Below are positions 1 to 13,653 of a stretch of DNA of 17,127 nt, in pieces. The notes under the pieces were generated by a model, which was not told the origin of the DNA, made no database searches, and saw only the letters and a program-made list of their open reading frames with translations. Positions within the stretch are counted from its first letter, which is position 1; each line of letters begins with the position of its first letter. Location of the stretch: NCBI GenBank assembly GCA_016926735.1, contig JAFGOA010000120.1, positions 1 to 17,127 of the forward strand. The letters run 5' to 3'. Source of the DNA: Promethearchaeota archaeon (lineage in GTDB: Archaea; Asgardarchaeota; Lokiarchaeia; Sigyniarchaeales; SOKP01). A program made the translations under genes and the position numbers.

Positions 1-15
1 ATTACTAATTTTTTA

Positions 16-543
16 ATGACAGAGATGAATAAGGAGAAATTAAAAAAAAAAAGAAATGAGATTGCAGAAGAATTACTTAATATGGGTTATATTGAATATA
101 GAATAGAAAATTATTCAGAAGCTTTAATATGTTTTGATAAAGTAATTGAAATAGATTCAAATTCTATTGAAGCTTGGTATATGAAAGGCAAAGTATTAAG
201 TGTTTTAAAAAGGCATAAAGAATCATTAGAATGCTTCACAAAAGCAGTAGATTTAGAACCTGATGATTATGAGATAGGATATACCAAAGGTTTAGCAATA
301 TTATTATATGAATATTATAAGAAGATTATAAAAGAAATAGAAATAAAGCTAGAACGATTACCTAATGATATTGATCTTATTTTTAAAAGGGGTTTAGCTT
401 TTGAATATATTGAAAATTTTGAAGAAGCAATATATTCTTATGAAAAAGCTCTTGAACTAAACCCAGATTCTGAGAAAATTAAAAAAGCTAGGTTGAGAGC
501 TATAAATACTCGTAATAGTTATCTTGAATTGAATTCAAATTAA
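16..543 (+). CDS. Tetratricopeptide repeat (TPR) protein; the frame is open to the window edge, so the true start may lie upstream
   Basis: TPR consensus units: 'YSEALICFDKVIEIDS', 'AWYMKGKVL...ESLECFTKAVDLEP', 'FKRGLAFEYIENFEEAIYSYEKALELNP'. Codons at 1..15 contain no stop. Confidence 0.9.
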   Translation: MTEMNKEKLKKKRNEIAEELLNMGYIEYRIENYSEALICFDKVIEIDSNSIEAWYMKGKVLSVLKRHKESLECFTKAVDLEPDDYEIGYTKGLAILLYEYYKKIIKEIEIKLERLPNDIDLIFKRGLAFEYIENFEEAIYSYEKALELNPDSEKIKKARLRAINTRNSYLELNSN

Positions 544-573: not shown

Positions 574-2253
574 TTATTCTATTTTTTTCAAATATTTTTG
601 ATCAATATCATTGTCAAGCATATTGTAAAAATATGAATAATATTTTTGATAGAATTCTCTCTTTTTATTTATAACTCTTGATTTTTCTTCTTCAGTAAAA
701 TACTTTCCTTCAGACCAAAATATTTTACCTTGATGATTCATAAGTATTTTATCTTCTTTTTTCACAATATATCCATTTTTTATAACATATTCAATATATT
801 CAAAAGCTTTTTCTATCAATTTATAATCTTTATTTGTATCTATTTTATCAATATTAATATTTAAAATATTTATATCTGCTTCAGAACCATTTGATAAATT
901 TCCTTTGAATTTACTTAATCCTAAAGACTTAGCTGGACTAGATCTAGTTAATATTATTAAATCATTAAAATTAAGTACATCCTCATTTGTAGATATTGAG
1001 ATGTTCTTTAAAAACTTATTATTCATATTTTCCATAAATTTAAAACGAGCATCTTTACTTAGTAACCATGTTATTATTTTTGGAATATCATTAAGATGAG
1101 AATAATGAGGGAAATTTAAAGAAAATTGTATTTGCCATTTATTTTTAATATTAAGAGCTAAATCTATTGCATTGCCCCATAAAATACAATCTTTGTATTC
1201 ATTCTTTTTAAATTCTCTAAAATTAGAATATGAGTCTCCTTCAAATTCATTAGAGTTAATAATATTATTTTTTTTTTTTTTGTAGGAATCAGTAATATCA
1301 GAAAAAAATCGTCTATCTGATGTAATAATAGGATTTATTTTATCAAATCCTATAAATGCTAAATCTACATCAATATTTGAATTATTGTTTAGATTATTAA
1401 TAATATTTTTATTATTTCCATCTATATTTAAAGAGTTAGCATGAGCTAAATGGCATATTTGATTTCTTTTATCTTTTGTAGATGTTCTCGCATCTAATTT
1501 TAGATTATCTAATTCTTTTAATAATGAATTTAAATTCTCTTTTCCTTCTAAATTTTCATATCCTTCTATATGACAATGAGCAGAGTGTGGTAAATCTAAT
1601 ATTTCTACTGCTTCTATAAACGTTTTATAGACATTTATAGCTTTAAAATTATAAAGAATACCATTTTTATTAATATCCTCTCGTAATTTATTAAAATTCC
1701 ATATTTCACTTTCGAAAGGATTATAGATTTTAATACCAAATCCTTTACATTTTGATAATAAATCGGAAATGAATAAAGCTATATCTTTAGTTTTTTTTTT
1801 CTCAATATCAAATTCTAAGGGCCAAAAATTACCCAAATTTAAAAGCATAGCTTTATCTAAAACAGGTATATTAATAAAATTAAAAATAGTATGTTTAGCA
1901 AGTGATGGATATACGTTAGCTTCTGTTATAAAAGTATAACCTTGGGAGATATACTCTTTAGCTATATATTCAGAAGTAAGAGCACCCCAATTAGAATTAA
2001 ATTCTTGATTATTTTTTCCCAAAAGACGTATCCAATTCATCTGTTGGGATGCTATATGACAATGGATATCTATAGCTGCGGGAATAATTGTTTTATTTTC
2101 AGCATTTATTTCTTTTATATCATTATTAGATGTAAATTTTTCTACTATTATTCCATTCTCAATCAAGATATCTTTTTTTTCTCCTATAATATTTGAGAAT
2201 GGATCGAATACTAAACCATTTTTAATTAATAGATTATTGCCTTTTTTTGACAT
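574..2253 (-). CDS. fwdA: Formylmethanofuran dehydrogenase subunit A-like amidohydrolase (divergent; final metal-ligand Asp replaced by Asn)
   Basis: 559 aa. Motifs 'LIKNGLVFDP', 'IDIHCHI' (HxH), 'GYTFITEA', 'GIKIYNP' (carboxylatable Lys), 'LPHSAHCH', 'HLAH', 'TRSSPAKSLGL..KGNL..GSEADI'. Last gene of an operon with B, D and G homologues. Confidence 0.88.
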   Translation of the reverse strand: MSKKGNNLLIKNGLVFDPFSNIIGEKKDILIENGIIVEKFTSNNDIKEINAENKTIIPAAIDIHCHIASQQMNWIRLLGKNNQEFNSNWGALTSEYIAKEYISQGYTFITEANVYPSLAKHTIFNFINIPVLDKAMLLNLGNFWPLEFDIEKKKTKDIALFISDLLSKCKGFGIKIYNPFESEIWNFNKLREDINKNGILYNFKAINVYKTFIEAVEILDLPHSAHCHIEGYENLEGKENLNSLLKELDNLKLDARTSTKDKRNQICHLAHANSLNIDGNNKNIINNLNNNSNIDVDLAFIGFDKINPIITSDRRFFSDITDSYKKKKNNIINSNEFEGDSYSNFREFKKNEYKDCILWGNAIDLALNIKNKWQIQFSLNFPHYSHLNDIPKIITWLLSKDARFKFMENMNNKFLKNISISTNEDVLNFNDLIILTRSSPAKSLGLSKFKGNLSNGSEADINILNINIDKIDTNKDYKLIEKAFEYIEYVIKNGYIVKKEDKILMNHQGKIFWSEGKYFTEEEKSRVINKKREFYQKYYSYFYNMLDNDIDQKYLKKIE

Positions 2254-2254
2254 C

Positions 2255-2635
2255 TTAAATTTTATCAGATTTTATTTTTTCAATTAATTCATTTAATTTA
2301 GTAGGAGGATCTCTCGTACCTTCTACATTAACTTTAATATTTTTATAAATAATATTGTTATTTTTTACATAGGTAACTTGGTTAGCCCATAATGATACAG
2401 GCATTAAAATAATACCTTCTGGAATTTTTGAATCTTGTTTGAAATTTACAATTACGTCACCATGATTGTTTGAAATATGTAATTTTAAACTTGGAACTAG
2501 ATACAGTTTTTTAAAGTCTAGAGGATTTATAAAACCTATAGCCAAATGTTCTTCCATAAATTCTACATCTTGACAATTCCATTCTACATTCTGATCATTA
2601 TTTATTAATCTTATTGTATTTAATATCATTTCCAT
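2255..2635 (-). CDS. fwdD: Formylmethanofuran dehydrogenase subunit D-like protein (molybdopterin dinucleotide-binding domain; divergent)
   Basis: 126 aa. 'MILNTxR', 'INPLDFKKL', 'HGDVIV', 'PEGIILMP..WAN' and 'YKNIKV.VE.T' follow the FwdD layout. Located between fwdB and fwdA. Confidence 0.82.
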   Translation of the reverse strand: MEMILNTIRLINNDQNVEWNCQDVEFMEEHLAIGFINPLDFKKLYLVPSLKLHISNNHGDVIVNFKQDSKIPEGIILMPVSLWANQVTYVKNNNIIYKNIKVNVEGTRDPPTKLNELIEKIKSDKI

Positions 2636-2652
2636 ATTTATTTTACACCAAA

Positions 2653-3957
2653 CTATTTATTTAACCTATCAAGAATTTTTTGTAATAATTCATAATCAGA
2701 TTGAATAAGACTAGGAGGCTCAATTATTTTTTTCAATTGTATAGGTACATGATCAAGTCTAAATGCTAGACCTTTATTTTCTATTCCTGTAATTGATGTG
2801 GGCAATATAAGAGTTGCAATTAAAAATGTCCCTGATTTTTTATTATCTATTAGTATTATCGGTTTAGATGATAATATCTTACTTATTTCTAAAGGAAAAT
2901 GAGATATAGGATCTGTTCCTATGATAATAGATAAATCAAAATCTTCTTTTTGTATTTTTGAAATTATATTATCATCAGATTTGATGGATTCTCCATTCTT
3001 AAATTGAATACTTTGATTTTTACCCGTTTCACTTAAAGCCATATGTTCAAAACCTACCATGTTATAGTGTCCTCCAACCATTAATAGAGAAATACGTCCA
3101 TTATTTTTAATATTATTAAGTAAATTTACTAATTCTAAAAGTTCTTTAATAGCATCTCCATTTGTTTTTTGATTTAATAAAGCTTGACCCGGTAATATTG
3201 TAATGTGTTCTGAATTTAATAGAAATGTTTTAAATCTTTCTAAATCTTGTTTATCAATGCCAGAAATACCCTCATTTGGAAAAGTATAGTCTCCTTTTAC
3301 AGCTTTTTTCAAGATTTTGATTAATTCAATATCCTCATTTGGTCTGATAATAATAGCTAAGTCTCTTGTACCCATAACTTTAAATGACGCAGTCTTATAA
3401 ATATCAACAATAATTAAGTTTTTTATTTCTCTACCCGTCATTCTAAATTTTCCTCGAGAAAATAGTATTTTACTAAATAATCGAGGGATTGACTCAACAA
3501 TATTCGTACCCCATAGTATAATCAAATCTGATTTATTAATAATTTCTGTAAGTGTCGTTGTAGTTATACCCATTTCGGAAGCAATATTCAAAAATTTACC
3601 TTGACATATAGTAGAATTTGAATCTATGAATGCATCTATTTTTTTAGCAATTTTAAGCGCTAAAATTTGAGATTCACATGAAATTGTTGATAATCCATAA
3701 ATAAGTGGTTTTTTAGCATTTTTTATAATCTGAATAGCCTTATTTAAAGCTAAATCCCATTCAAGAACTTTTAAACCTCCTTTATCTTTATATAACGGAG
3801 ATAAAATTCTATTTTTAGATTTTATTTGATTAAATTTATTTATGCCTTTTTGACAAGCTCCAAGAATTTCCTTTATTTCTTTATCATCTTTTATAATGAT
3901 TATATCATCACATAATAAAGAACAACCTGAACAAGTTATTTTTAATTGTTCTGACAT
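2653..3957 (-). CDS. fwdB: Formylmethanofuran dehydrogenase subunit B-like protein (divergent active site)
   Basis: 434 aa. N-terminal [4Fe-4S] motif CSGCSLLCDD...ACQKG; 'AKKPLIYGLS..SCE'; 'IDSNSTICQG' (W/Mo-ligand Cys118); 'TLTEIIN.SDLIILWG.N'; 'GHYN..G'; 'IIGTDPISHFP'; 'GIE..G.AFRLD.VPI'. Confidence 0.9.
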   Translation of the reverse strand: MSEQLKITCSGCSLLCDDIIIIKDDKEIKEILGACQKGINKFNQIKSKNRILSPLYKDKGGLKVLEWDLALNKAIQIIKNAKKPLIYGLSTISCESQILALKIAKKIDAFIDSNSTICQGKFLNIASEMGITTTTLTEIINKSDLIILWGTNIVESIPRLFSKILFSRGKFRMTGREIKNLIIVDIYKTASFKVMGTRDLAIIIRPNEDIELIKILKKAVKGDYTFPNEGISGIDKQDLERFKTFLLNSEHITILPGQALLNQKTNGDAIKELLELVNLLNNIKNNGRISLLMVGGHYNMVGFEHMALSETGKNQSIQFKNGESIKSDDNIISKIQKEDFDLSIIIGTDPISHFPLEISKILSSKPIILIDNKKSGTFLIATLILPTSITGIENKGLAFRLDHVPIQLKKIIEPPSLIQSDYELLQKILDRLNK

Positions 3958-3985
3958 TTTTTTTAAGATATTATTTAATTATAAA

Positions 3986-4474
3986 TTATATATACTCAAT
4001 TTTTAAAGCTTCTCTAGGGCAATAGGTTTCACAAACTCTACATTCTCGTTCTTTTCCTTCGGTTTCTAATCTTCGGCAATATTTAATATTCAATAATTCA
4101 CATTTTCCTTCTTTTACCATAAATAATTGATGCGTATCTGGAGGATAATCTGGTGCTTTTCCACTTAAAATAGAATAACAATATCTGGCATTTACAGGAC
4201 ATATAGTGACACATATTCCACACCCATCACATAATTCATTTTCAATATTTATTTTAAGTTCTTTTTTTTTTCCTTCTTCACTTTTTAATAAATCCTTTAA
4301 TTTTAAATATTTTTCTTGGTATTTTGGGTCATCTAAAAGTGGAGTACAGTCTTCAATTTTTACATTACCCTTTAACAGTTCAAGTGAAAATGCCATACAT
4401 GTTGGTTTCCCACATTTCTTACAATTTGTTTGAGGTAAATAATTAAAAAGTTCCAGAAAATTTTTAGGAGGTAT
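3986..4474 (-). CDS. fwdG: FwdG-like ferredoxin with an N-terminal extra Fe-S domain (about 162 aa; start extended from the ORF-track ATG at 4396 to a putative ATA at 4474)
   Basis: The frame upstream of the ATG at 4396 reads IPPKNFLELFNYLPQTNCKKCGKPTC-MAF, followed later by 'DCTPL'. This is the CxxCxxxxC...C Fe-S domain seen in AcsC/CdhE/RnfB N-termini. The C-terminal part has CDGCGICVTICP and C...CRVCETYCP. An in-frame TAA at 4477..4475 bounds the ORF. Confidence 0.8.
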   Translation of the reverse strand: MPPKNFLELFNYLPQTNCKKCGKPTCMAFSLELLKGNVKIEDCTPLLDDPKYQEKYLKLKDLLKSEEGKKKELKINIENELCDGCGICVTICPVNARYCYSILSGKAPDYPPDTHQLFMVKEGKCELLNIKYCRRLETEGKERECRVCETYCPREALKIEYI

Positions 4475-4725: not shown

Positions 4726-5265
4726 ATGACATCATATTCAAATAGACTTTATAAAATATGTATTGTTGGTGATGGAGGCGTAGGAAAAACAACAATATTA
4801 CATAGATTTGTAGATGGTGTTTTTTTAGAGAATGCAAAATTAACAATAGGTACTAATTTCTTTCTTAAATCTGTTAAATTGGATAAAGAAAATATAAAAG
4901 TTACTCTTCAAATATGGGATTTAAGTGGTCAAGATAGATTTTCAATTATACGACCCAATTTCTATAATGGAGCTAAAGGAATTATCTATACATTTGATGT
5001 CACAAGAAGAATATCATTGATAAATTTGCTAAATTGGAAAGATGAGATTGAACATGCTATAGGAAAAAAACCCAGTATTTTATTGGGAAATAAAATAGAT
5101 TTAATTTCCGATATAGGAGAGAGAATTATATTAGAAGACGAATGTGAGTTAAAAAGAAAAGAAATTAATGCAAAAATCTTTTTAGAAACAAGCGCTAAAA
5201 ACAATATAGGTATAAATAAAGCTTTTAATATAATTTCCCGACAAATATACAAATTATCAAAATAA
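4726..5265 (+). CDS. Ras-superfamily small GTPase, Rab-like (Asgard eukaryotic signature protein)
   Basis: G1 GDGGVGKT, G2 TIG, G3 'LQIWDLSGQDRF', G4 'GNKID', G5 'ETSAK'. No C-terminal prenylation cysteines. Confidence 0.95.
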   Translation: MTSYSNRLYKICIVGDGGVGKTTILHRFVDGVFLENAKLTIGTNFFLKSVKLDKENIKVTLQIWDLSGQDRFSIIRPNFYNGAKGIIYTFDVTRRISLINLLNWKDEIEHAIGKKPSILLGNKIDLISDIGERIILEDECELKRKEINAKIFLETSAKNNIGINKAFNIISRQIYKLSK

Positions 5266-5342: not shown

Positions 5343-5615
5343 ATGAGCGAAGTTAAACAAAATGAATTGAAATCAAGGATTGAAAAAATAGTTGAAAAGA
5401 CATTTAAAAAGATAATTGAAAAGAGTTCTAAAGGTTATTCTATTGAAGAACTTGTTAAAACTCTGATAATTACCAAAATTATGGCTAAACTTAAAATTAT
5501 TATAAGACGAAGTGCTGTAAAAAGCTTAGTGAGAATAGCTGTTAAAAAAGCGGTGAATAGATATTGGGAAAAACATAGAGATCAGATGATAACGATAATC
5601 AATAACTTGGAATGA
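5343..5615 (+). CDS. Hypothetical basic, probably helical protein (90 aa)
   Basis: ATG start and co-oriented with its neighbours; K/R/I-rich. No motif recognised. Confidence 0.65.
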   Translation: MSEVKQNELKSRIEKIVEKTFKKIIEKSSKGYSIEELVKTLIITKIMAKLKIIIRRSAVKSLVRIAVKKAVNRYWEKHRDQMITIINNLE

Positions 5616-5697: not shown

Positions 5698-5850
5698 ATG
5701 GAAAAAATTATTTTAGAAGTAAATGAAAATGAAATACCTCTTAATCCTTTAATGCAAAACATGCTTAAAAATATGGTATTAGCATATCTAAAAAGCGCAA
5801 AAAAAGTACCTGATGATATAAATTCCATTAAAATTGAAATTGAACTTTAG
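5698..5850 (+). CDS. Small protein (50 aa) resembling the C-terminal extension domain of MobB-type proteins; absent from the ORF track
   Basis: Reads ATG(5698) MEKIILEVNENEIPLNPLMQNMLKNMVLAYLKSAKKVPDDINSIKIEIEL TAG(5848..5850). The pattern 'L.V....IPLNP..Q..L...V.....S.K.V......I.I.I' is recalled from MobB C-terminal domains. It fills the gap between co-oriented genes. Confidence 0.75.
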   Translation: MEKIILEVNENEIPLNPLMQNMLKNMVLAYLKSAKKVPDDINSIKIEIEL

Positions 5851-5908
5851 AAAACTAAATATCAACCAACTTAATAGAATTTAATTAATTTCCTACTTTT
5901 TTTATATT

Positions 5909-6793
5909 ATGAAATTAGAACCTGAATGCATAGGCTGTTTTTTTAATCAAGTTTTAAAAGCATTTAAATTATTAAAACCTAATATTTCAAATGATATTAT
6001 TCTAGATGCCCAAGAACGTATTATGAAATTTTTATTAAAAAATGATATAAAAAAAATTACATCTCCTTTAGTAGGAAAATATTTGTATAATCTAATAGGG
6101 AATATTCTTAATGATAATGATCCGTATGCTAATTTGAAGAAAACGTCAAATCAAATCGCCCTTAAATATTATGATAGAATAAAAAATTTTATAGAAAAAT
6201 CTGCTGATCCATTATTAGAAGCATTGGTTGTATCTGCTCTTGGAAATACAATAGATTTCGCTAGTCAACATAAAATAGATATTCTAAATGATATTGAAAA
6301 AATGAATCCTAAAGATCTTATCATAAATGATTATATAAAATTTAAACAATCATTAGATTCAACTGATAGGTTAGTAATATTATTAGATAATGCAGGTGAA
6401 ATTGTATTTGATAAAATTCTAGTCGAAATTTTACAGAAATTTTATCCTAAATTGGAAATAATATGTGCTGTTCGTTCTGCACCCATTATTAATGATGCTA
6501 CTATGCAAGATGCTGAATATATAAAATTAAATTTATTTGTAAAAATAATAAAATCGAGTCCAGCTCCCGGTATTGATTTCTCTGATATTTCTGAAGAATT
6601 AAGAAAATATTTATATTCTGAAGATGGAATGATTCTTTCTAAAGGACAAGGCAATTTTGAAACATTATATGGATTAGATTTACCAAATAAAAATATATTT
6701 TATCTGTTAAAAGCAAAATGTAATCTAATGGAAAGAATATTTAATGTAAAAATAGGTAGTCTAATTTTAAAAAAAAAGACTTTGGGATTTTGA
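5909..6793 (+). CDS. DUF89/ARMT1-family damage-control metal-dependent phosphatase
   Basis: N-terminal 'ECIGC', 'DPY...K..SN', 'GNTIDF', 'DNAGEIVFD', 'PIINDAT..DA', 'SKGQGNFETL', 'LLKAKC'. Confidence 0.92.
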   Translation: MKLEPECIGCFFNQVLKAFKLLKPNISNDIILDAQERIMKFLLKNDIKKITSPLVGKYLYNLIGNILNDNDPYANLKKTSNQIALKYYDRIKNFIEKSADPLLEALVVSALGNTIDFASQHKIDILNDIEKMNPKDLIINDYIKFKQSLDSTDRLVILLDNAGEIVFDKILVEILQKFYPKLEIICAVRSAPIINDATMQDAEYIKLNLFVKIIKSSPAPGIDFSDISEELRKYLYSEDGMILSKGQGNFETLYGLDLPNKNIFYLLKAKCNLMERIFNVKIGSLILKKKTLGF

Positions 6794-6805
6794 TTTTAAT
6801 ATTAT

Positions 6806-7321
6806 TTAATTCAATTTTTCTTTTTTCATTTTTTTAATTGCTTCAGTAAAAAATCCAAAATCCTCAATAGGTTGTTGATTGTCTTTTTCTTTTAATTTAT
6901 CAAAATATTCGATAATTTGCATAAGCATTATTTTTTTGAAAGACTCAAATTTGCTGACATATTGGCATTCATCTATTTCATTCTTATAGAAATTGTAGAA
7001 ATTATCTAAAGCTTTTTCAGCTTCTTCTCTGAGATTATATTTTCTAAATTTTTTATCTAAAATTGCTATAAGTATTAATTTATGTTTACTTACAATTATC
7101 ATTTCTACATCTAAACCCTTGATGGTAATTTCTTCAATTTTCCCTAAATTATCTTTACCAAAGAGAGATAATGCACCAACGAAAGATGATAATAATACAG
7201 GATTTATATCTGAATCTAATATTAGGTCTACTAAATATTCACCAGACTCTTTACATATAATAATCCCCTTCAATAAATTTATATTATAATTATCTAAAAT
7301 ATTCGTCAAATTAATCAACAA
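6806..7321 (-). CDS. Longin/roadblock-like domain protein (putative small-GTPase regulator); TTG start, exact start uncertain
   Basis: Strand-strand-helix layout: 'KGIIICKESGEYLVD', 'DINPVLLSSFVGALSLFG', 'KIEEITIKG..MIIV...LILIAILD', helix 'ALDNFYNFY', 'VSKFESF'. This resembles Asgard longin-like proteins. Confidence 0.7.
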   Translation of the reverse strand: MLINLTNILDNYNINLLKGIIICKESGEYLVDLILDSDINPVLLSSFVGALSLFGKDNLGKIEEITIKGLDVEMIIVSKHKLILIAILDKKFRKYNLREEAEKALDNFYNFYKNEIDECQYVSKFESFKKIMLMQIIEYFDKLKEKDNQQPIEDFGFFTEAIKKMKKEKLN

Positions 7322-7393
7322 TCAATTAAATCTAAAATTAGCTTTATTACCATAATAAAATAATTAATTAAAAATCTTTTCTTTGCAGAAATT

Positions 7394-11406: not shown

Positions 11407-13653
11407 ATGTTGCATATATTACCCGCTATAGAAAAATTTAAAGAAATTTTATCAAATTTTGCAGAACATCCTGTTTTTTTTATTTGTATATTTATTTTAA
11501 TTCCATTAGCTTTGATCTTTTCTTTAGTTAGTATCTTTCTAATTTATAGGAAAATAAACGCGTTAGAAAAGAAAACTGTAAGAATGAGAGAGATTAGTGC
11601 TGATATTAAACATGGAGCAAAAGTATATCTTAAAGATCAAGCAAAATCTTTATTAAAAATTTTAGTATTACTCTTTATTCCTGTTGGGATAACCGGATTT
11701 AATTTCTTAGATAATCCATTAATTGGAATTCTTTTAACTGGACTTATTTTTCTTCTGGGTTCTGTTAGTTCCTTAATTGCTGGATATATAGGGATGATTG
11801 CTGCAACTAAATCAAATATATTAGTGGTCGAAGCATCCATAGATGATCCTAATAAAGGATTTAAATTATCATATTATGGGGGAATGATCACTGGAATATT
11901 AAATATTTCTATGTTTGTTTTAGGTATTTGGCTTGTTTTAATCCTTACTAATGGAAATATATATCTAATGGTGGGATATGATTTTGGAGCTAGTGTTTCT
12001 GCTTTATTTGCTCAAGTAGGGGGTGGTATATATACTAAAAGTGCTGATATGGGTGCTGATTTAGTTGGTAAATATGAAATGGATATTAAAGAAGATGATC
12101 CAAGAAATCCCGCAATAATCGCAGATTTAGTAGGTGATAATGTAGGTGATTGTGCGGGGAGAGGAGCAGACTTATTTGAAAGTGCCGCTTCTGATGCTAT
12201 AGGGGGAATGGTTCTTGGATTAGCAATTTTTCTTTTAATAGGAGAACCTATATTCATTATTTCAAATTTAACACTAATCGCTTTAGGATTATTTTCATTA
12301 TTTTTCACTACCATTTTCTTAAAAATCGATTTTAAAAAACCAGCAAAAAGCATTTGGAGAGTTTTCTTAGCGTGTACTCTCTTTAATATCCTTATAATTA
12401 TTATAATAAATATCTTATTTTTTGGAATTTTAGGATTCTGGTTAATTTTTTCAAGTATCATTGGTCTGGTTTCAGTTTTTATTACAATAATTTTTACAAC
12501 ATATTATACAAGAAGTGAATACACGCCCACCAAGAAGGTAGCTGTTGCTTCTCAGATAAGTCCTTCTTCTAATATAATAGCAGGATTATCTACAGGGTTT
12601 AGTTCTGTATTTGGTCCTATGATTATATTTGCTTTATCTGTTGTTGGCTCTTATTTATTTGGATATTTTTGCGGTATCCATTATGTAGATATGCTTGGAG
12701 GTTACCCAACGAATAATATTTTAGGAGAACCAATAGATGGAGCCTTTTTACTGCCCCTTGTTTTTGGGATTTGGGGTGTTAATATGGCTTCTGTTTCTTC
12801 GGATATTATAATTAGCACTGTACTTAGTTTTGATACTTTTGGACCTATTGCAGATAATGCCGCGGGAATTGCCGAAATGGGTCATGAAGAAGCATCAGAG
12901 GGATTAAGAGACAATTTAGATAAATTAGATGCGATTGGTAATACAACTAAAGCAATAGCAAAAGGTTTCGCTCTAATATGTGGTGGATTTAGTAGTATTG
13001 TGCTCTTTTTTACATTTTTATTATCAGCTAATACTCTAGCTGAAGGGTCTTGGAATATATTCAATAATTTAAATCTTGAAAATCCTCTAATAATTATGGG
13101 TTTGAGTATTGGAACCGTTATCTCTATATTATTTACTGCCATGGTATTTAAAGCAGTTCAAAAAGGATCAATGAAAATGGTCCTTGAGGTCAGACATCAA
13201 TTCAAAAATATTCCTGGTTTGAAAGAAGGAGCGAATAAACCCGATTATGATGAATGTATTAATATTTGTGCTAAAAATGCCTTGAATTCTATGTTGAAAC
13301 CAGTATTATATATAATTGCTATTGAATTAATTTTAGGGATATTATTTGGTCCAATTGTAATTAGCGCATTTTTGATAGGAAATTTAATAGGATGTCTAAT
13401 AATGGGATTTTGGCAGAGTATAGGTGGTGCGAGTTTTGATAATGCAAAAAAATCTATAGAAGCAGGATTATTTGGTGGAAAAGGTAGTTTCGCTCATAAA
13501 TCTGCTATTATTGGTGATACTGTAGGAGATCCATTAAAAGATGCTGCTGGTCCAAGTATGAATATTCTTATTACAACAATAAATAATTTAGCTTTAACAT
13601 TTCTTCCTATATTTATATTAACAGGATATTTATGGAACATTATTCCTTTCTAA
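11407..13653 (+). CDS. hppA: Membrane-integral ion-translocating pyrophosphatase, predicted K+-independent (AVP2/type II-like signature)
   Basis: 'GGGIYTKSADMGADLVGK', 'EDDPRNPAIIADLVGDNVGDCAGRGADLFES', 'DTFGPIADNA', 'LDAIGNTTKA' (Lys indicates K+-independence), 'DNAKK', 'GDTVGDPLKD.AGPS'. Many transmembrane segments. Confidence 0.96.
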   Translation: MLHILPAIEKFKEILSNFAEHPVFFICIFILIPLALIFSLVSIFLIYRKINALEKKTVRMREISADIKHGAKVYLKDQAKSLLKILVLLFIPVGITGFNFLDNPLIGILLTGLIFLLGSVSSLIAGYIGMIAATKSNILVVEASIDDPNKGFKLSYYGGMITGILNISMFVLGIWLVLILTNGNIYLMVGYDFGASVSALFAQVGGGIYTKSADMGADLVGKYEMDIKEDDPRNPAIIADLVGDNVGDCAGRGADLFESAASDAIGGMVLGLAIFLLIGEPIFIISNLTLIALGLFSLFFTTIFLKIDFKKPAKSIWRVFLACTLFNILIIIIINILFFGILGFWLIFSSIIGLVSVFITIIFTTYYTRSEYTPTKKVAVASQISPSSNIIAGLSTGFSSVFGPMIIFALSVVGSYLFGYFCGIHYVDMLGGYPTNNILGEPIDGAFLLPLVFGIWGVNMASVSSDIIISTVLSFDTFGPIADNAAGIAEMGHEEASEGLRDNLDKLDAIGNTTKAIAKGFALICGGFSSIVLFFTFLLSANTLAEGSWNIFNNLNLENPLIIMGLSIGTVISILFTAMVFKAVQKGSMKMVLEVRHQFKNIPGLKEGANKPDYDECINICAKNALNSMLKPVLYIIAIELILGILFGPIVISAFLIGNLIGCLIMGFWQSIGGASFDNAKKSIEAGLFGGKGSFAHKSAIIGDTVGDPLKDAAGPSMNILITTINNLALTFLPIFILTGYLWNIIPF

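Follow-up and report, generated by a model that had tools for sequence, protein, structure and literature searches.

A paralogous formylmethanofuran dehydrogenase-like operon in Lokiarchaeia, probably repurposed and related to fwdG2B2D2-type clusters of the Methanosarcinales

Contig JAFGOA010000120.1 of assembly GCA_016926735.1, from a Promethearchaeota archaeon (Lokiarchaeia; Sigyniarchaeales; SOKP01), carries on its minus strand, between positions 574 and 4474, an operon of four open reading frames (ORFs) that resemble subunits of formylmethanofuran dehydrogenase (Fwd) and that are here termed G2, B2, D2 and A2. The window, by which we mean the whole stretch of DNA that was analysed (17,127 nucleotides, nt), contains the following genes at and immediately beside this operon (lengths in amino acids, aa).

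574-2253, minus strand: A2, FwdA-like amidohydrolase subunit, 559 aa
2255-2635, minus strand: D2, FwdD-like cap domain, 126 aa
2653-3957, minus strand: B2, FwdB paralog with the molybdopterin-oxidoreductase fold, 434 aa
3986-4396 from the first ATG, minus strand, with the frame open to 4474: G2, electron-transfer subunit
1-543, plus strand: TPR gene, convergent with A2
4726-5265, plus strand: Ras-family small GTPase gene, divergent from G2

An earlier account of this DNA, made from its letters alone (the sequence-only reading), had described four compact, full-length ORFs in the order G2-B2-D2-A2, bounded by the TPR and GTPase genes and lacking fwdC and fwdF. Coordinates and flanks agree with that description: the intergenic gaps are 1, 17 and 28 nt, there are no internal stops, neither FwdC nor FwdF is encoded in the window, and FwdC is missing from 32 related operons as well.

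The genome to which the window belongs (99% complete, in 238 contigs) also holds a canonical set of fwd genes, a matter that the sequence-only reading had raised. Canonical FwdA is encoded on contig C181 (749 bits), and contig C78 carries, next to a FwdD cut down to its C-terminal end by the contig edge, canonical FwdB (602 bits) followed by FwdC (245.6 bits). This FwdC, beside the canonical FwdB, is the only good one in the genome. The contigs with the canonical genes and the window contig are all within the range of G+C content of the genome, and relatives assembled into long contigs carry both copies on a single contig (for example G027:C1 and G025:C3). Because canonical FwdA and the partial FwdD-FwdB-FwdC cluster sit on other contigs, the window operon is a paralog of canonical Fwd.

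B2 is the only subunit that reaches the curated cut-off of its family (337.5 bits against TIGR03129, cut-off 327.8), and it matches the FwdB chains of the Protein Data Bank (PDB) with an E value of 8.6e-64. The cysteines of its N-terminal [4Fe-4S] motif (C9, C12, C16 and C35) are present and do not vary in any of 31 aligned rows. Catalysis by FwdB is attributed to Cys118, His119 and Arg288 (PMC6926001). On an alignment carrying the M. wolfeii FwdB numbering, along which residues of B2 were counted, Cys118 of B2 aligns with Cys118 of 5t5i_B, the position of the tungsten or molybdenum (W/Mo) ligand. The other two residues are replaced: B2 has Gln119 instead of the His that follows Cys or Sec in the three solved FwdB chains shown, and Gly295 at the column of Arg288, which is Arg in those chains. 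Residue counts in the clade, for B2 and A2 alike, refer to 33 rows, that is, the window and 32 further loci. Cys118 is found in 33 of 33 rows, and Arg288, present in all 12 canonical FwdB compared, is found in none, its column being occupied by Gly (26 rows), Thr (4), Ser (2) and Ala (1). The column of His119 holds Gln in 26 rows, His in 6 and Leu in 1. B2 retains 35 of the 57 columns that are invariant in canonical FwdB.

A2 scores 302.9 bits against TIGR03121, under the cut-off of 392.75, and matches the FwdA chains of the PDB at an E value of 3.5e-60. It possesses H64 and H66 (an HxH motif), K175, the H223/226/228 group and H268/271, amounting to four His and a putative carboxylysine Lys. 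Four His, one Asp and the carboxylysine are described as perfectly conserved in the formylmethanofuran dehydrogenases studied in PMC11656701, and the mechanism proposed there has the Asp of FwdA abstracting a proton from the amine of methanofuran. A2 has Asn380 at the Asp of the 'T-T-D-(H/S)-P-N' stretch seen in the two solved FwdA chains shown. This column is covered by 30 rows, of which 29 have Asn and one has Ser; the other three rows end at a contig edge. The remaining ligand positions are kept in 30-33 rows (His64 in 33/33, His66 in 32/33, Lys175 in 31/32). Among the columns conserved in canonical FwdA, A2 retains 34 of 63, and near the metal site it has acquired residues that are fixed in the clade, namely E230, E233, Y177 and N113. 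The gatekeeper Lys64 of FwdA was dropped as evidence, for although Gln stands there in 25 of the 29 A2 rows, just 10 of 17 canonical rows have the Lys.

The D domain is reported to cap and coordinate the pterin, and to be missing from the pterin-less Fhc complex (PMC6926001). D2 scores 49.5 bits against NF042908, under the cut-off of 175, and 24.1 bits against PF01568, also under the cut-off; its match to 5t5i_D has an E value of 1e-7. A clade-specific deletion has taken three residues out of a loop conserved among canonical FwdD proteins, and D2 reads S-I/L-W where canonical FwdD reads G-P-W. The view of the sequence-only reading that key residues are changed in A, B and D alike is therefore borne out by Asn380 in A2, Gln119 and Gly295 in B2, and the loop deletion in D2. 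Over the 33 rows the substitutions prove to be clade-wide and not private to this genome, and the solved chains shown have the canonical residues.

Co-folding of B2 with A2, using alignments made for this analysis, gave an ipSAE of 0.94 in three runs, compared with 0.00 for the best of three controls; the mark used for this score is attained by 116 of 157 solved complexes as against 2 of 215 mismatched pairs. The runs share at least 96% of contacts, with a partner pLDDT of at least 90, and the predicted interface takes in residues 70-81 of A2, just past the HxH motif. As a model, this shows that a Fwd-like A-B interface is retained in the sequence; it is to be taken as likeness and not as binding, because Fwd complexes have already been solved.

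The electron-transfer subunit is of a different kind from the label fwdG that the sequence-only reading had given it. Read from position 4474 (162 aa), G2 contains a PF04060 FeS domain (49.4 bits) and then Fer4 (35.8 bits), the ferredoxin domain being of the two-[4Fe-4S] type with a long insert. The N terminus of the ortholog in locus L041 matches large subunits of the corrinoid Fe-S protein (CFeSP; E ~2e-9) and, weakly, RnfB (E 0.0055), and its C-terminal half resembles FwdF/FwdG. An alignment of six proteins of this type (G') from the Asgard families f1, f13 and f21 has 12 Cys that never vary, a number sufficient for three clusters. Judged by these matches, G2 is not FwdG but a predicted fusion of an RnfB/CFeSP-type Fe-S domain to a two-cluster ferredoxin. 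The observation that the Fe-S cysteines are retained stands, with four in B2 and 12 in G'.

The operon is a family-wide feature. Genes of the B2 type (47-96% identity) occur in 32 of the 36 other genomes of family f1, and almost all of the f1 genomes with B2 have a canonical copy besides, at about 30% identity. Sampled across the phylum, A2-type genes (at least 48% identity) turned up in 59 of the 68 other f1 genomes and, at the same identity, in none of 232 genomes from other families of the phylum. All 32 fetched loci have the order B-D-A, 31 of them with G2 upstream, and the operon is conserved over at least 12 genera, with identity down to 46-47%. All of the public protein clusters listed, at least 120, have 54% or higher identity to B2. 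Those that bear a name are called 'formylmethanofuran dehydrogenase subunit B' and come from metagenome-assembled genomes (MAGs) labelled Lokiarchaeota or Promethearchaeota. Public sources do give the relatives of B2 this name, in keeping with the sequence-only reading, which had expected automated annotation to count the operon as a Wood-Ljungdahl enzyme. A look-up of RNA sequencing runs listed none that contains this DNA, and the three metatranscriptome runs among those listed had a word share of 0.00.

The ratio of nonsynonymous to synonymous substitution rates (dN/dS, or omega; pairwise NG86, restricted to pairs whose dS is under 0.7) falls in the range 0.035-0.23 for each of the four genes of the operon. 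In pairs from genus g8 it is 0.107-0.119 for B2, and in the same pairs the canonical genes give 0.10-0.13 (FwdB), 0.16-0.24 (FwdD) and 0.10-0.27 (FwdC). Paralog and canonical genes are thus under equal purifying selection, and there is no incipient decay. In this genus (L066, L067, L069) the canonical cluster is Hdr-linked, with the arrangement HdrA-MvhD-FwdG-polyferredoxin-FwdD-FwdB-FwdC, and lies convergent to the paralog at a distance of 0.2-1.6 kb.

A search with the alignment of G' proteins revealed full-length relatives outside the Asgard archaea, in Methanohalophilus, Methanolobus, three Methanoperedens records and another Methanosarcinales MAG (loci L082-L090). In six Methanosarcinales loci, G' is followed by altered FwdB- and FwdD-like genes (B* and D*), with no A or C gene there; in two of the six (L082 and L086) a divergent HdrA-MvhD fusion and a polyferredoxin gene adjoin. 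All six B* have Cys-Gln, and Val or Ala at Arg288, and Cys118 is present in all nine Cys-bearing B* compared with B2. The genomes concerned also encode canonical FwdB, and B* was found in 32 of 41 sampled genomes of that Methanosarcinales family. Clusters named fwdG2B2D2 are on record for three Methanosarcina species in PMC2838876, according to which methanogens keep several Fwd/Fmd isoenzymes and fwdB2 of M. acetivorans is transcribed constitutively at about half the level of fwdA1/B1. The Methanosarcinales clusters share with the window operon the order G-B-D and the architecture of G' (33-38% identity to G2), and B* shares with B2 the Fe-S cysteines, Cys118, the Cys-Gln pair and the lack of Arg288. 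They differ in that the window operon adds A2, with Asn for Asp, whereas no such gene stands beside the Methanosarcinales cluster; in that B* keeps His160, Arg179 and Arg187 and D* is without the loop deletion, whereas B2 and D2 are changed in these respects; and in that the HdrA-MvhD and polyferredoxin genes do not adjoin the window operon. From these likenesses, the window operon appears as the Lokiarchaeial branch of a 'type-2 Fwd' (fwdG2B2D2-type) class and as kin of G'/B*. The class would be defined by an RnfB/CFeSP-like G', retention of Cys118, loss of Arg288, often a Cys-Gln pair, and the gene order G-B-D.

A quick maximum-likelihood tree built from 42 FwdB-like sequences puts canonical FwdB of Asgard archaea and Methanosarcinales in one clade (SH-aLRT 99), with every non-canonical row on the far side of that branch. 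B2 is a separate clade (SH-aLRT 100) on a stem of 0.74. In the corresponding tree for A, A2 (SH-aLRT 100, stem 0.70) lies outside a 99-supported clade of canonical FwdA and the FwdA-like proteins (A*) of the altered operons described below. Because B2 and A2 fall on separate, supported clades, the operon is, on this phylogenetic evidence, not a recent copy of the canonical genes of its host. A2 is placed, in a quick tree, as a weak sister (86) of four degenerate FwdA-like representatives (P0130, P0137, P0148 and P0154), which are full-length proteins without the HxH pair, the Lys and the Asp. The second FwdA of families f21 and f24 (33-37% identity and 250-280 bits to A2) was considered as an A2 ortholog and rejected, BLAST placing it nearer canonical FwdA (36-40%) in agreement with the tree. 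In family f24 (L072, L076, L077) this is a stand-alone FwdA-like gene of 533-542 aa with its ligand motifs kept, and no B, D or G gene adjoins it at these three loci; a close representative, P0127, has Asn at the Asp position.

With canonical FwdABCDFG/FmdABCD (PDB 5T5I, 7BKB, 8RJA, 9SW6 and 9SFI) the operon shares the folds of A, B and D (E 1e-7 to 1e-64), the [4Fe-4S] motif and Cys118 of B2, the four His and Lys of A2 and the predicted A-B interface. It is set apart by Gln119, Gly at Arg288 and Asn at the Asp of the A site, by A2 and D2 scoring under their family cut-offs, by an electron-transfer subunit of the RnfB/CFeSP type in place of the 82-aa FwdG, and by having neither FwdF nor FwdC, the latter reported to brace the tunnel that joins the two active sites (PMC11656701).

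The formyltransferase/hydrolase complex Fhc of methylotrophs (FhcABCD; PDB 6S6Y), which the sequence-only reading had offered as a precedent, is likewise a Fwd derivative without CO2/formate redox chemistry, with His119 and Arg288 not conserved. As described in PMC6926001, however, the Fe-S domain and the D subunit are gone from Fhc and Cys118 is replaced by Ser62, all three being kept by the window complex. Fhc kept FhcC, gained Ftr (FhcD) and keeps Asp377 of FhcA with all ligands, whereas the window operon has no Ftr or FwdC gene and its Asp is changed. Fhc is therefore a poor precedent, and as a model for the operon it is ruled out by the Fe-S cysteines and Cys118 of B2, the presence of D2 and the lack of Ftr and FwdC.

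Beside the window operon, altered, Hdr-linked Fwd operons of the Asgard families f21 (L073-L075) and f13 (L080) resemble it in having a G' of the same type, a FwdA-like gene and a B* without Arg288 (Ile or Ala instead). The f13 FwdA-like gene has Asn for Asp, as in A2, whereas A* of f21 keeps the canonical Asp motif. Their gene orders, D-A*-polyferredoxin-HdrA/MvhD-G'-B* in f21 and D-A*-G'-B* in f13, are unlike the G-B-D-A of the window; B* of both families keeps His119, and BLAST puts their A* and B* nearer to the canonical proteins than to A2 and B2. A further clade, of HdrA-linked molybdopterin-family proteins from ANME-2/3, Methanolobus and Methanosarcina (PMC12054007), is similarly related to FwdB/FhcB and found in methane-metabolising archaea. 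As characterised in that paper, it is without Cys118, adjoins hdrABC-mvhD-fdhB and is predicted to be unable to hold the cofactor, whereas B2 and B* keep Cys118 and adjoin G' and D; in view of the missing Cys118 it was rejected as a member of the same family as B2.

The wider surroundings of the operon are varied. In 8 of the 32 loci (L042, L043, L044, L047, L056, L059, L062 and L065) one to three NifX-like genes (PF02579) and two genes for MinD/CbiA-type P-loop ATPases with an inserted ferredoxin domain lie ahead of it on its own strand. Six further loci have one such ATPase gene directly upstream in divergent orientation, and in the window genome (G000) a NifX-like gene and one ATPase gene of this type are found on another contig (C50:55890-57255). 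Other neighbours (MFS_2 transporter in 10 loci, AMP-binding in 5, VWA CoxE-like with AAA in 5, MttB-family in 4) were too inconsistent to be used as functional hints. Within the window, a plus-strand ORF of 90 aa (5343-5615) beside the Ras-type GTPase gene has no Pfam or NCBIfam match; L038, L039 and L040, from relatives in the genus, have a similar ORF there. An H+-translocating pyrophosphatase gene (PF03030, 608 bits) occupies positions 11407-13653 of the plus strand, within a stretch with a G+C content of 0.33 against about 0.23 around it; in L057 a homolog lies immediately upstream of the paralog operon. The G+C content of the window is 20-33% in 1-kb steps, and scans of its whole length for tRNA genes and Rfam families returned nothing.

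We favour, at a probability of roughly 0.55, the view that the operon encodes a repurposed Fwd derivative, a 'type-2 Fwd' branch in Lokiarchaeia that would no longer make formyl-methanofuran from CO2; its job is probably one other than CO2 fixation. The sequence-only reading had likewise taken parallel changes without ORF decay to suggest another function, and it gains support from the canonical set elsewhere in the genome, the clade-wide nature of the substitutions and the low dN/dS. The cofactor content, electron path and substrate of the complex we infer as follows. Electrons would enter or leave via G2, with up to three [4Fe-4S] clusters, and B2 would relay them through its own [4Fe-4S] cluster to a metal site with Cys118 as a ligand and D2 as its cap. 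In favour of a retained pterin, Cys118 is invariant and the D cap is under selection, both having been lost in the pterin-less Fhc. The metal site would be without the His/Arg pair that formate dehydrogenases and Fwd use for CO2/formate, so that it may handle another substrate or act as a redox centre only. A2 would dock on B2 in the manner of FwdA and bind metal by four His and the Lys; lacking the aspartate that serves as metal ligand and general base, it would not be expected to perform a formate-methanofuran condensation of the known type. The canonical set on the other contigs would carry out the CO2 step of this genome.

A more specific proposal, which we put forward only tentatively, is that of a two-site enzyme with new chemistry, in which a Cys-ligated cofactor in a rebuilt B2/D2 pocket would act on a substrate other than CO2/formate and a small product would travel by a Fwd-type tunnel to or from a re-tuned binuclear metal site in A2. 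The cofactor might then be a modified pterin, or another metallocluster that comes from the NifX-like and MinD-ferredoxin proteins whose genes precede the operon in 8 of 32 loci, and the Methanosarcinales fwdG2B2D2 could be an A-less version for the same reaction.

A number of observations weigh against a repurposed catalytic complex or blur its outline. The A2 ortholog of L065 (positions 5748-7382, plus strand, genome G006) is an intact ORF of 544 aa from which most of the metal ligands are gone. Its changes are His66 to Asn, Lys175 to Ser, His223 to Asn, His226 to Gln, His268 to Gln, His271 to Asp and Asn380 to Ser; B2 of the same locus looks typical of the clade. In-frame TAA codons interrupt A2 in two other genomes, twice in G008:C453:2307-3896 and once in G193:C211:103-1137, reflecting either pseudogenes or assembly errors. 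Given L065, these stops and the A-less Methanosarcinales loci, the metal site of A2 may be dispensable. B2 is furthermore without canonical-invariant residues that B* retain (His160 to Leu, Arg179 to Lys, and Arg187 to Val, Tyr or Ile in a 'VDPR'-like motif), and the loop deletion of D2 bears on the integrity of the same pocket, which may be changed or empty. The Gln at position 119 is not clade-defining, His119 being retained in the ancestral-looking genus g8 and in two other loci. In this genome and in its nearest relative, G003 (L038), there is no ATG, GTG or TTG ahead of the FeS domain of G2: the frame opens at ATA 4474, straight after TAA, a GTG further upstream meets TAA two codons on, and the Met of G2 orthologs is CTG here and CTA in G003. 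A full 162-aa G2 would therefore need a non-canonical start, and translation from ATG 4396 would give 136 aa without three of the four N-terminal Cys. Either initiation is non-canonical in these two genomes, or the protein has 136 aa and has recently lost its first cluster; the five nt differences between the two genomes over these 26 codons are not decisive either way. As to the class itself, in the quick B tree B* of f13 and f21 join canonical FwdB and B2 in a polytomy and the Methanosarcinales B* are a further group, with no sister of B2 singled out, and the equation of the Methanosarcinales clusters with the published fwdG2B2D2 of M. acetivorans is drawn from gene order and taxonomy.

Several of these points would suit an inert pseudo-enzyme, in which the complex serves as an Fe-S relay or docking scaffold, for example for Hdr-type partners, with a pocket that is empty or non-catalytic and a purely structural A2. 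The catalytic His, Arg and Asp are gone, His160 and Arg187 of B2 and the D2 loop have followed, A2 can lose its ligands while its ORF stays intact (L065) or acquire in-frame stops (two MAGs), and the A-less Methanosarcinales version stands beside HdrA-MvhD and polyferredoxin in two of six loci. There is precedent too, in FhcB and FhcC acting as scaffolds (PMC6926001) and in the Cys-less HdrA-linked clade judged in PMC12054007 to be incapable of holding the cofactor. A pure scaffold, however, would need neither the five of six ligand positions that A2 keeps in 31-33 of 33 rows nor the clade-fixed acidic residues E230 and E233 alongside them. Cys118 persists in 33 of 33 B2 and in all nine Cys-bearing B*, whereas the pterin-less FhcB, as reported, lost it together with the Fe-S domain and D; D2 is under purifying selection (omega 0.035-0.23); and no Hdr genes adjoin the f1 operons apart from the HdrA of the canonical cluster in g8. 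We consider this explanation rather unlikely.

Less probable again is a working Fwd isoenzyme, of W/Mo or condition-specific type, in which other residues stand in for those lost and FwdC is borrowed from the canonical locus. It would fit that B2, at 337.5 bits, is above the NCBIfam equivalog cut-off for FwdB (327.8), that the folds of all four subunits are retained along with the Fe-S motifs, Cys118 and five ligands of the A site, that modelling predicts a Fwd-like B2-A2 interface, that a canonical FwdC in the genome could be shared, and that multiple Fwd/Fmd isoenzymes are known in methanogens (PMC2838876). Yet Arg288 is found in 12 of 12 canonical FwdB and three solved chains as against 0 of 33 B2, and the Asp missing from A2 is perfectly conserved in the enzymes studied in PMC11656701 and required by the mechanism proposed there. 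A2 and D2 are far under their family cut-offs, only 35 of 57 (B) and 34 of 63 (A) canonical-conserved columns are kept, the electron-input subunit is of another type, and B2 and A2 have long stems of their own. Finally, the missing canonical start of full G2 here and in G003, the TAA codons in A2 of G008 and G193 and the degenerate A2 metal site in G006 might be read as signs of a duplicate decaying towards pseudogenes. This is strongly disfavoured, and we regard it as very improbable: none of the four ORFs is broken here, almost all of the 32 loci have them intact as well, omega is equal to that of the canonical genes, and the operon persists in at least 12 genera, at identities as low as 46-47%.

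In the main texts of the literature that was searched, among them 10.1101/2020.10.19.343400, PMC9012536, PMC13580544, PMC5861303, PMC12054007 and PMC11493965, there is no account of the Lokiarchaeial G-B-D-A operon and no function for fwdG2B2D2. What is new here is the link to the Methanosarcinales G'B*D*, the changes in the B2/D2 pocket, the anomalous start of G2 and the equal selection on both copies. The fwd genes mark the tetrahydromethanopterin (H4MPT) Wood-Ljungdahl pathway in reconstructions of Asgard metabolism, and the operon can cause false or double counts because it is labelled FwdB though without the residues for that chemistry; it should not be counted as a CO2-fixation gene. An operon found throughout a Lokiarchaeial family is now tied to the fwdG2B2D2 of Methanosarcina, transcribed but without an assigned function since 2010, and the class thereby gains a sequence definition; Methanosarcina is genetically tractable, and the class is therefore directly testable. 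If the proposal of new chemistry were true, the 'Fwd' genes of this whole class, in methanogens as in Asgard archaea, would encode a redox enzyme not yet discovered. Beside Fhc, the operon would represent a second route by which Fwd has been repurposed, one that retains the redox hardware and replaces the residues that handle the substrate.

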